Below are positions 50,248 to 50,812 of a DNA stretch of 50,812 nt, piece after piece (position 1 is the stretch's first letter; each line of letters opens with the position of its first letter). A program made the position numbers and the translations under genes. The notes under the pieces are model-generated. The model had not been told where the DNA came from, ran no database searches, and saw only the letters and a list, made by a program, of their open reading frames with translations. The DNA is from Clostridia bacterium (GTDB lineage Bacteria; Bacillota; Clostridia; Oscillospirales; CAG-272), in contig JAGCJI010000108.1 of NCBI GenBank assembly GCA_017648085.1, forward strand, positions 1 through 50,812, written 5' to 3'.

Positions 50248-50276
50248 CGTGAAAAATGCAGAAATTGGTGGTAAAA
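50248..50276 (+). promoter_or_regulatory. extended -10 promoter in front of the structured RNA
   Basis: GTGAAA, 17-nt spacer, TGgTAAAAT (50268-50276). Confidence 0.45.
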
Positions 50277-50282
50277 TGTAGT

Positions 50283-50812
50283 CACAAGGACACAAGCAGT
50301 CGACATTTAATCGGCAGGGCTGTGTCTTTGAAAGGCACAAACAGCAATGCTGTAAGCACTTGACTTTTAACCGAGGATGCTATCGGGTTCATAGCCTGAC
50401 AAACAGGTGCCTTGCTATAAAGATACGAACAGCAACCACAAGAAGAATAACAGGTCGATGATCTATTTAAGCATTGGACCGAACGCTAGATGGAGGTGCT
50501 CGTCACTGACCGCTTGCGGTGGTTATATTAGTTTGCGTAAGCGAACGCGTATCTTGGAAACCTCATAAAGATACTAACAGCAACTACTGACCGCAACTCA
50601 GGCTGATACATATGTGTTTGGCACGTGTAGAGTTGCGAGCCCCTGTCGTAAGCAGGTCATCTTGCAACATTACACAGTAGATGATGGCGTAAGCCATCAG
50701 GTGAAAATAGTATCTTGTAAAGCATAGCGTCATATAGGTCAGCATTAGTCCATAAGGACGGGTTCAGCTGAAGTATCACTGATGCTAAAAGGCACAAGCA
50801 GCAATAGATAAG
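50283..50812 (+). ncRNA. candidate large structured ncRNA built of serial hairpin domains (truncated by the window end)
   Basis: No ORF of 60 aa or more on either strand. Five copies of AAG[GR][AYC]AC..A[AG]CAGCAA start successive domains, and the first four are closed by exactly complementary 3' arms that differ in sequence. Three GUAA-capped hairpins and one CUUG-capped hairpin appear only when read on the plus strand. Confidence 0.6.

Follow-up and report, generated by a model that had tools for sequence, protein, structure and literature searches.

Tandem RNA modules with a common stem-and-motif handle and tRNA-like cargo: probable Y-RNA analogues of the Ro60-like DUF2828 proteins

Results

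The module array at the window edge

The stretch analysed here (the window) comprises 50,812 nucleotides (nt) of a contig from a Clostridia bacterium (JAGCJI010000108.1, assembly GCA_017648085.1). Near its 3′ edge, two genes for WYL-domain proteins are followed by a terminator-like hairpin, a promoter-like site and a structured region, which an earlier note on this DNA, made from the sequence alone, had proposed as a candidate large ornate RNA with the look of the ROOL/GOLLD/OLE class. The region is a tandem array of separate self-closing modules, not one RNA. Each module is closed by a stem of its own (P1), carries the motif ACAGCAA on the 5′ strand inside that stem, and encloses a variable insert, the cargo. 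The array covers 50286–50812 and a further 73 nt past the edge, five modules altogether, and leads to a gene of the DUF2828 family. The sequence past the edge was read from L001, a 66-kb ENA contig that also encodes the second, 303-amino-acid (aa) WYL protein. Over 11,496 positions, L001 and the window disagree at 8, and L001 continues for 762 nt past the edge (window position = L001 position + 39316).

50213–50246, plus strand: intrinsic-terminator-like hairpin and T tract from a terminator scan, closing the WYL gene pair (hairpin 50213–50238, L001 10897–10922)
50249–50277, plus strand: promoter-like site, with −35 GTGAAA (50249–50254), a 17-nt spacer, TG (50269–50270) and −10 TAAAAT (50272–50277)
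50286–50329, plus strand: unit 1, a variant module, with P1 AAGGACACA (50286–50294) / TGTGTCTTT (50321–50329) and one G·U pair
50332–50413, plus strand: unit 2, with P1 AAGGCAC (50332–50338) / GTGCCTT (50407–50413) and ACAGCAA at 50341–50347
50420–50555, plus strand: unit 3, with P1 AAGATACG (50420–50427) / CGTATCTT (50548–50555) and ACAGCAA at 50429–50435
50568–50716, plus strand: unit 4, with P1 AAGATACTA (50568–50576) / TAGTATCTT (50708–50716) and ACAGCAA at 50577–50583
50725–50787, plus strand: spacer hairpin without the ACAGCAA handle, stem UAGCGUCA/UGAUGCUA (−22.1 kcal/mol, z −3.3)
50789–50812, plus strand: unit 5, 5′ part, with 5′ arm AAGGCAC and AGCAGCAA; the remainder lies past the window edge
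L001 11473–11569, plus strand: unit 5, complete, with 3′ arm GTGCCTT-G at L001 11562–11568, enclosing a tRNA-like cloverleaf
L001 11625 onward, plus strand: DUF2828 gene (DUF2828 E 4e-22), starting 56 nt after unit 5

The terminator that the earlier note had described is present as a terminator-like hairpin, the extended −10 promoter as a match to consensus, and transcription is predicted from the promoter sequence to start 1–4 nt 5′ of unit 1. As had also been said, 50256–50812 contains no open reading frame (ORF) of 60 aa or more, the longest being 53 aa. The motif AAGRYRCNNNCAGCAA occurs exactly four times in the 50.8-kb window, all on the plus strand, at 50332, 50420, 50568 and 50789, against a mean of 0.02 matches in shuffled windows, and none of 100 shuffles reaches four. 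What had been counted as the first of five copies, at 50286 (AAGG), is the inexact variant AAGGACACAAGCAGTCGA, and the positions then given for the copies were about 1 nt low. The four pairs of arms are as described before, with every coordinate again too small by about 1 nt. Spacings of 46, 88, 148 and 221 nt do hold in the window, but a nested growth of the units as an organisation recurs in no relative, and the growing spacing is thus a coincidence of this array.

Unit 1 has a degenerate motif, AGCAGTCGA, and a single internal hairpin (fold −19 kcal/mol, z −5.7), and its position matches that of the canonical first module of relatives such as L003. The unit 2 insert holds an anticodon-arm-like hairpin with the loop ACUUUUAAC, similar to that of tRNA-Lys(UUU), together with a T-arm-like hairpin, UCGGGUUCAUAGCCUGA. 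Both larger inserts fold into several hairpins, including CUUG- and GUAA-capped stems in unit 3 and two GNRA-capped stems in unit 4 (fold z −4.5), so that the GUAA- and CUUG-capped hairpins of the earlier description do appear in the folds. The spacer hairpin is kept beside unit 4 in L003. Units 3 and 4 have an identical P1 sequence (50549–50555, 50568–50574), and because of this the 3′ arm of unit 3 could alternatively pair with the 5′ arm of unit 4, 12 nt off.

The region had been recognised as cut by the window edge. Indeed, L001 continues past the edge, completes unit 5, which closes at L001 11562–11568, and reaches the DUF2828 gene. Of the eight positions at which L001 departs from the window, four (50465, 50690, 50715 and 50733) are within the 545-nt array. 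In unit 4 of L001, GCAA replaces GUAA, so that the GNRA loop type is retained, and the 3′ arm has G in place of T, which leaves the second pair of the stem weaker.

Each unit folds with its own closing stem. Folding of the whole region gives z −2.96 on the plus strand and −2.91 on the minus strand, so that energy fails to separate the strands, and the global minimum-free-energy fold is uninformative, the units being swamped by long-range pairs. The number (1 to about 10), order and size of the units vary among loci. L002, whose DUF2828 protein is 96% identical to that of L001 over the N-terminal 211 aa, has the promoter and units 1, 4 and 5 in common with the window, along with the beginning of unit 2. 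Unit 3 is missing, and L002 has instead some 1 kb of different modules plus two genes of tRNA type, of which one is a tRNA-Phe ending in CCA. Rfam 15 was searched permissively with the window and L001, at the gathering threshold only with 14 bacterial loci, and at E ≤ 1 with three phage loci, and tRNA was the only family matched across all of these; on the window and L001, nothing was found at E ≤ 10 except the tRNA model on unit 5. The reading as a single ROOL/GOLLD/OLE-class RNA is not upheld, with no model matching and the units self-closing and variable in number and order.

The handle across Clostridia

We compared L001 with 80 further loci carrying DUF2828 homologues (64–96% identity) in species-representative genomes, all Clostridia. 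In 78 of the 80, the 1.6 kb ahead of the gene contain between 1 and about 10 copies of the 16-nt motif. The locus is carried by isolates such as Hominifimenecus sp. rT4P-3 (CP167068), Anthropogastromicrobium aceti, Yanshouia hominis BX1, Pseudoflavonifractor phocaeensis and Oscillibacter MSJ-31. Over the 81 loci (716 kb), the 2.5 kb ahead of the gene hold 309 motifs in its orientation; 1 motif lies downstream, none farther upstream and 1 on the opposite strand. A full 7-bp complementary 3′ arm precedes the next motif for 297 of these 311 motifs, with Watson-Crick pairing throughout in 284, and permuting the arms among modules brings the latter count to ~49 (maximum 70). P1 therefore covaries, and the compensatory stem changes that had been read from the window alone are borne out.

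The module consensus is a-AAGRYRC-NN-ACAGCAA-h ... A-rich-GYRYCUU-G, over a length of 37–204 nt (median about 82). The handle consists of P1, 7–9 bp long with an unpaired A on its 5′ side and an unpaired G on its 3′ side, and of an invariant, single-stranded ACAGCAA on the 5′ strand facing an A-rich 3′ linker. At the base of the stem, the conserved A stands opposite G in 262 of the 297 modules, and an eighth pair is formed in 75%. Arms with a single mismatch are of the G·U type in 68 cases and of the A·C type in 6. This bias, the gene-strand counts, the signatures of T and D loops and the promoter agree on the plus strand as the RNA strand, as had been proposed for a structured non-coding RNA region; fold energy alone is neutral.

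A strict −10 pattern is present at 26 of 78 loci, and in 19 of these 26 the first module lies 9–10 nt past the −10. The terminator sequence ...GAGTTCGCAGCTTTTTTT is conserved across dozens of loci, where it belongs to a recurring block made up of the WYL-gene terminator, CCGTGA.., about 17 nt, and TGnTAAAAT or TACAAT. The WYL regulators may have their operator in the CCGTGA part. At window positions 50228–50285 (and likewise in L003–L074) the block reads ...GCAGCTTTTTTTCCGTGA[T/A]AA.., about 17 nt, TGnTAAAAT.

Cargo domains

Unit 5 matches the Rfam tRNA model at 47.6 bits, over model positions 4–67 only, and ARAGORN makes no tRNA call on it. Its cloverleaf has the normal tRNA order, with a D arm, an anticodon arm whose loop is CUGAAAA, and a T arm. 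In an alignment of 34 modules of this class, RNAalifold recovers P1 and the D, anticodon and T arms; 95% of cells are paired and 16 of 20 pairs are changed on both sides, a result matched by none of 500 shuffles, and slid controls reach 34–47%. The handle attaches where the acceptor stem would continue, the top of the acceptor being absent. The Rfam tRNA model also matches many modules homologous to unit 5. Further tRNA-like classes have P1 sequences of their own: a tRNA-Arg(UCG)-like element is found with AAGACGC, and a degenerate T loop with AAGATGC.

Many short modules have an anticodon-arm-like hairpin as their sole cargo. A 5-bp stem with a 7-nt YU-NNN-R-N loop is found in 168 of 422 distinct modules (T loops counted), compared with 11.6 in shuffled inserts. 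In the CUNUUAA-loop class (36 distinct sequences, picked by the loop alone), which includes unit 2 of the window, the 5-bp helix is 79% paired, against 50% in shuffles, and none of 500 shuffles reaches the score. We take the loop and stem of unit 2 to resemble the anticodon arm of tRNA-Lys(UUU), going by the E. coli sequence.

Many cargo domains are not tRNA-like. The unit 3 class recurs in L005, L008, L012, L014 and L015, and internal covariation in its 6-sequence alignment is weak; the unit 4 class recurs in L002, L003, L004 and L014. With 5–6 homologues, support is weak for these larger classes. Gaps between the modules of relatives hold degenerate modules or genuine tRNA genes. Free-standing tRNA genes lie within arrays at L002 4771–4846, L004 4266–4342, 4606–4679 and 4746–4816, and L006 4816–4892 (one of them the tRNA-Phe ending in CCA), and tRNA clusters lie downstream of the operon at L026 9301–9909, L057 8363–8880 and L043 10048–10291.

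The cassette and the DUF2828 protein

The array is flanked upstream by the following genes.

47805–48020: 71-aa ORF just 5′ of WYL gene 1, with a gene call in L001 as well (8489–8704); no Pfam match
48064–49320, plus strand: WYL-domain protein 1, 418 aa, with helix-turn-helix/PaaX-like, WYL and WCX regions; first member of the tandem pair
49317–50228, plus strand: WYL-domain protein 2, 303 aa; its start overlaps the end of WYL gene 1

WYL protein 1 matches Pfam WYL (E 3.9e-6), WCX and PaaX more weakly, and the PADLOC WYL model (E 3.4e-12), and is likely a regulator. WYL protein 2 matches the PADLOC WYL model at residues 126–296 (E 2.1e-8); Pfam and NCBIfam searches gave no match for it. The gene following the array, which the earlier note had proposed to look up, encodes the Ro60-like DUF2828 protein, and in relatives an RtcB gene (E 5e-57) comes next. 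The order of the cassette is two WYL genes, the RNA array, a DUF2828+DUF7788 gene and rtcB, seen with both RtcB and the WYL pair in L002 and L026. Among the 81 bacterial loci, homologues of WYL 1 lie upstream in 60 and of WYL 2 in 64, and RtcB lies downstream in 53; many of the loci scored without WYL or RtcB lie on short contigs. The parts of an RNA-repair cassette, namely a Ro-type gene, small RNA genes, rtcB and a regulator, are thus all found, the regulator being the WYL pair, not RtcR.

One metagenome-assembled genome (JAZRBV01; contigs L002 and L003) has two paralogous whole cassettes with seven canonical modules each. Neighbouring genes in L002 (58–918, 8315–9526, 9892–10503) and L026 (673–2340) encode a reverse transcriptase, an RNase III-like protein with a double-stranded-RNA-binding domain, a LexA-like S24 peptidase and an AlwI restriction enzyme, and the cassette may in some genomes sit within a defence or mobile-element neighbourhood. 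Unrelated Rfam matches flanking related loci are a T-box leader, a DUF3268 RNA and an S-adenosylmethionine (SAM) riboswitch (L004 10390–10599; L043 10493–10616; L068 634–738).

Full-length relatives of the DUF2828 protein are 485–510 aa long and consist of DUF2828 and DUF7788, with weak VWA_2 matches in 18 of 28. An AlphaFold2 model of a 95%-identical homologue (predicted local distance difference test, pLDDT, 78.7; predicted template-modelling score, pTM, 0.56) was compared with the PDB by Foldseek. The top 12 matches are all Ro60/TROVE proteins, over the full length (E 2.6e-7 to 2.4e-4), including phage phiLo Ro60, Deinococcus Rsr, Xenopus Ro60 and human Ro60, and vWA domains come next. The modelled protein thus resembles Ro60 at the level of fold alone, with no sequence-level TROVE match to DUF2828. 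PHROG 850 labels the family 'RNA-binding protein', and mycobacteriophage records label its members 'Ro-like RNA binding protein'. The family comprises at least 8000 clusters at E ≤ 1e-10, with homologues in 705 cultured-phage records.

Phages, viral contigs and metagenomes

Among 58 viral contigs with DUF2828 homologues (35–67% identity), modules occur on 46, with 144 in the orientation of the gene and 1 in the opposite one. The WYL pair is present on 2 of the 58 and RtcB on 6, and of the 52 loci without WYL or RtcB, 42 keep modules, so the modules track DUF2828, not WYL or RtcB. P1 sequences of phage modules differ (GGGACGC/GCGTCC, GTGACAC/GTGTCA, AGACCAA/TTGGTCT, TAGACAC/GTGTCTA) while ACAGCAA and the 3′ G are kept, which means that the first three pairs of the stem also covary. 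The handle is kept in phages of Firmicutes, Actinobacteria and Proteobacteria.

L140 5713–5779, 5880–5937, 6334–6401 and 6421–6545: four modules of phage FelixO1 (NC_005282), directly downstream of the DUF2828 gene
L141 5463–5719: three modules of mycobacteriophage Faith1, after the DUF2828 gene
L142 2239–2361, 3459–3518 and 3848–3908: three modules of Bacillus phage Tsamsa, where the DUF2828 gene follows 19 tRNAs

In FelixO1 the DUF2828 gene, annotated 'RNA-binding protein', heads a tRNA array, and the modules (AGACCAA..ACAGCAA..TTGGTCT-GG) stand between tRNA genes. The modules of all three phages are unannotated and gave no Rfam match at E ≤ 1. In the middle unit of Faith1 (L141 about 5524–5640) and in L140 6421–6545, the order T arm, acceptor-like hairpin, D arm can be made out by eye. 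Such a YrlA-like order, present in few phage modules, hints at common ancestry with canonical Y RNAs.

A metagenome scan for the handle variant AAAGGCACNNACAGCAA gave 120 matches, of which 91 are without a 3′ arm (mostly chance) and 29 are true modules. DUF2828 lies in the retrieved stretch for 12 of the 29, and 5 more have WYL genes only, on truncated stretches. The constant companions of the modules are DUF2828 and tRNA genes.

Discussion

We consider it probable that the modules are Y-RNA analogues for the Ro60-like DUF2828 protein and that they display mimics of tRNAs or of anticodon arms. Y RNAs attach to Ro60 by their terminal stem, of which the 5′ strand alone bears a conserved motif. 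Partners such as PNPase are recruited or blocked by the opposite end, and YrlA includes a tRNA mimic (PMC4201824, 10.1101/312249, PMC7790460, PMC12135203). Y RNA genes adjoin Ro60 genes and share their strand; in bacteria the two are at most 4 kb apart, and in phage phiLo the Y RNA genes lie upstream (PMC4201824, 10.1101/312249, PMC12135203). The bacterial Y RNAs (Yrn1, Salmonella YrlA/YrlB, phiLo Yrl1/Yrl2) are, like the modules, modular, with paired ends, a 5′-strand motif and a variable effector end. They are encoded next to a Ro60-type gene in the same orientation, as the modules are next to DUF2828, whose likeness to Ro60 is one of fold; in both groups, multiple copies and an accompanying RtcB are frequent, and some members have a tRNA-like domain. 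The counterpart of the Y RNA terminal stem is P1, which closes 297 of the 311 modules and covaries. Furthermore, the cassette parallels the RNA-repair operon of Salmonella, in which rsr, yrlBA and rtcBA form one operon induced by tRNA fragments (PMC4201824, 10.1101/312249, PMC7790460, PMC12135203). The modules differ from bacterial Y RNAs in having DUF2828 as putative partner, in forming arrays of up to about 10 units and in the WYL pair that takes the place of RtcR.

The tRNA-like modules share with YrlA a tRNA-like core (D and T arms) set on a stem, in the modules a putative one, for protein binding, with no free CCA end. In YrlA the tRNA is circularly permuted, and it is the anticodon stem that links it to the Ro helix (10.1101/312249), whereas unit 5 and the 34 aligned homologues are unpermuted and joined at the acceptor end, leaving the whole anticodon arm exposed. 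Compared with the tRNA genes and phage tRNA arrays among which they are interspersed on the same strand, module cloverleaves score 30–53 bits on the Rfam tRNA model, but their acceptor is cut to 3–4 bp and continued by the handle, and there is no CCA or discriminator context.

Several points weigh against the Y-RNA analogy. P1 is only 7–9 bp long, against the long stems of Y RNAs. The motif is ACAGCAA, not the GNCGAAN0-1G or CGAA of Y RNAs and YrlA or the bulged helix of vertebrate Y RNAs, although its placement is analogous, and the Rfam searches described above gave no Y_RNA match. A second helix just above the handle is found in 73% of cases, compared with 63% in a permutation control, which is marginal. 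The Foldseek matches to Ro60 have low TM-scores (0.29–0.39) and root-mean-square deviations of 15–17 Å, which makes the likeness of DUF2828 and Ro60 one of shared architecture, with no close fit, and sequence and profile searches of the PDB with DUF2828 gave no Ro60 match. Modules are absent from 12 of the 58 viral DUF2828 loci, and in KVP40 none lies within ±5 kb of the DUF2828 gene. Most of the remaining metagenome modules lie in dense tRNA arrays, with no DUF2828 in the retrieved stretch, so the pairing of modules with DUF2828 is strong, not established as obligate. Finally, it is from genome sequence that we infer the transcription of the modules, their processing into separate RNAs, their binding by the protein and their role.

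Other explanations account for parts of the data. A single folded, multi-domain RNA like ROOL, GOLLD or OLE would explain a densely structured, ORF-free region of more than 600 nt near tRNAs and phage-type genes, the low folding energy of the whole, the GNRA loops, and one promoter ahead with no clear internal terminator. However, the minus strand folds as well, the permissive Rfam searches found no such model, and the conserved pairing is all within units, which are independent, repeated and free of any fixed overall architecture. Arrays differ freely in the number, order and type of their units, strains that share the 96%-identical DUF2828 N-terminal fragment have gained or lost entire units, and lone units occur among phage tRNA genes, so that we regard one large RNA as very unlikely. 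That the tRNA-like inserts are a graveyard of functionless tRNA pseudogenes and fragments is more improbable still. A likeness to tRNA is common among the inserts, some are called by ARAGORN or by the Rfam tRNA model, and genuine tRNA genes are interspersed, but many cargo domains do not look like tRNA at all, and ACAGCAA is invariant and P1 compensated across phages of three bacterial groups, which indicates selection on the handle, a feature foreign to tRNA genes. An element acting at the level of DNA, such as iterons, WYL operators or recombination sites, would fit a short repeat in one orientation beside regulator genes, and the earlier note had itself named such an element among the outcomes that would refute an RNA. 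We find it scarcely credible, since the partner arm changes in step with each repeat, G·U pairs are tolerated where A·C are not (68 against 6), the helices of the cloverleaf and of the anticodon arm covary, and the motif persists in phages without WYL genes.

A different possibility is that the array is a cis-acting leader of the DUF2828-rtcB mRNA, whose handles would be autoregulatory or attenuating sites for DUF2828, RtcB or WYL. The array does lie between promoter and gene on the same strand, the layout from promoter to array is conserved, and there is no strong terminator ahead of the start codon; WYL domains, moreover, are reported to bind single-stranded nucleic acids. On the other hand, phage modules are found 3′ of the gene or interspersed with tRNA genes, in part on stretches without detected DUF2828; in L078 a module sits after the gene; most phage loci are without WYL and RtcB; and a simple operator needs no tRNA-like cargo. 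A leader function therefore appears unlikely as the explanation of the modules, and it would be compatible with a Y-RNA role, because the Y RNAs of Salmonella themselves sit inside the rsr-yrlBA-rtcBA operon.

Some further candidates were set aside. A CRISPR-like array has no support in the genes examined, which include no cas genes, and the repeats pair with their own distal arms. A retron or other reverse-transcriptase-associated RNA was rejected, a reverse transcriptase gene lying near L002 only, as was a self-cleaving ribozyme, for which there was no Rfam match. The stable RNAs rnaC and rnaD of phage T4 are not known members of the class, neither having the P1-ACAGCAA handle.

If the modules are Y-RNA analogues, the five of the window would be transcribed from one promoter, each combining the common handle with a variable cargo. 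By analogy with the 5′-strand motif through which Y RNAs bind Ro60, the P1-ACAGCAA handle would be the binding site of the DUF2828 protein, and the cargo would offer a tRNA-like surface to tRNA-directed enzymes, be they nucleases or repair and processing enzymes such as RtcB. The WYL pair would control the conserved promoter and turn the operon on upon the appearance of damaged nucleic acid. The tandem arrangement of the two WYL genes is reminiscent of PafBC.

More tentatively, the modules could be decoys or sentinels for anticodon nucleases, with each cargo imitating a particular tRNA or anticodon arm, most commonly Lys-UUU, Met-CAU, Arg-UCG, Phe-GAA and Asn-GUU; we hold this to be a minority prospect, raised because it fits the variety of 'anticodons' and the phage setting. 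In bacteria, cleavage or protection of a module might then be coupled to repair by RtcB and to induction sensed by the WYL proteins. In phages such as FelixO1, the ribonucleoprotein might shield the phage tRNA supply from host defences that cut tRNA. If this is true, the modules would be previously unrecognised and very widespread partner RNAs of a divergent Ro60-like protein.

Neither Rfam 15 nor the literature open to search yielded an account of these RNAs, and a mention in reviews on bacterial Ro60 is possible. The search of Chen et al. (2014) covered only genomes annotated with TROVE proteins, which places the DUF2828 module loci outside it. The P1-ACAGCAA handle is simple and open to mutation, pull-down and modelling, and with a covariance model of it, hundreds of gaps that now lack annotation in the tRNA regions of phages would receive a label. 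As Y-RNA analogues, the modules would bear on the joint role of bacterial Ro proteins, Y RNAs and RtcB, on why phages have tRNA arrays, and on tRNA mimicry in conflicts over tRNA cleavage. They would give the very large, uncharacterised DUF2828 family an RNA partner and a testable role, and would extend the world of Ro60 and Y RNAs to gut Clostridia and to phages, including FelixO1-like phages, those of Listeria and Staphylococcus, and the mycobacteriophages of cluster L.

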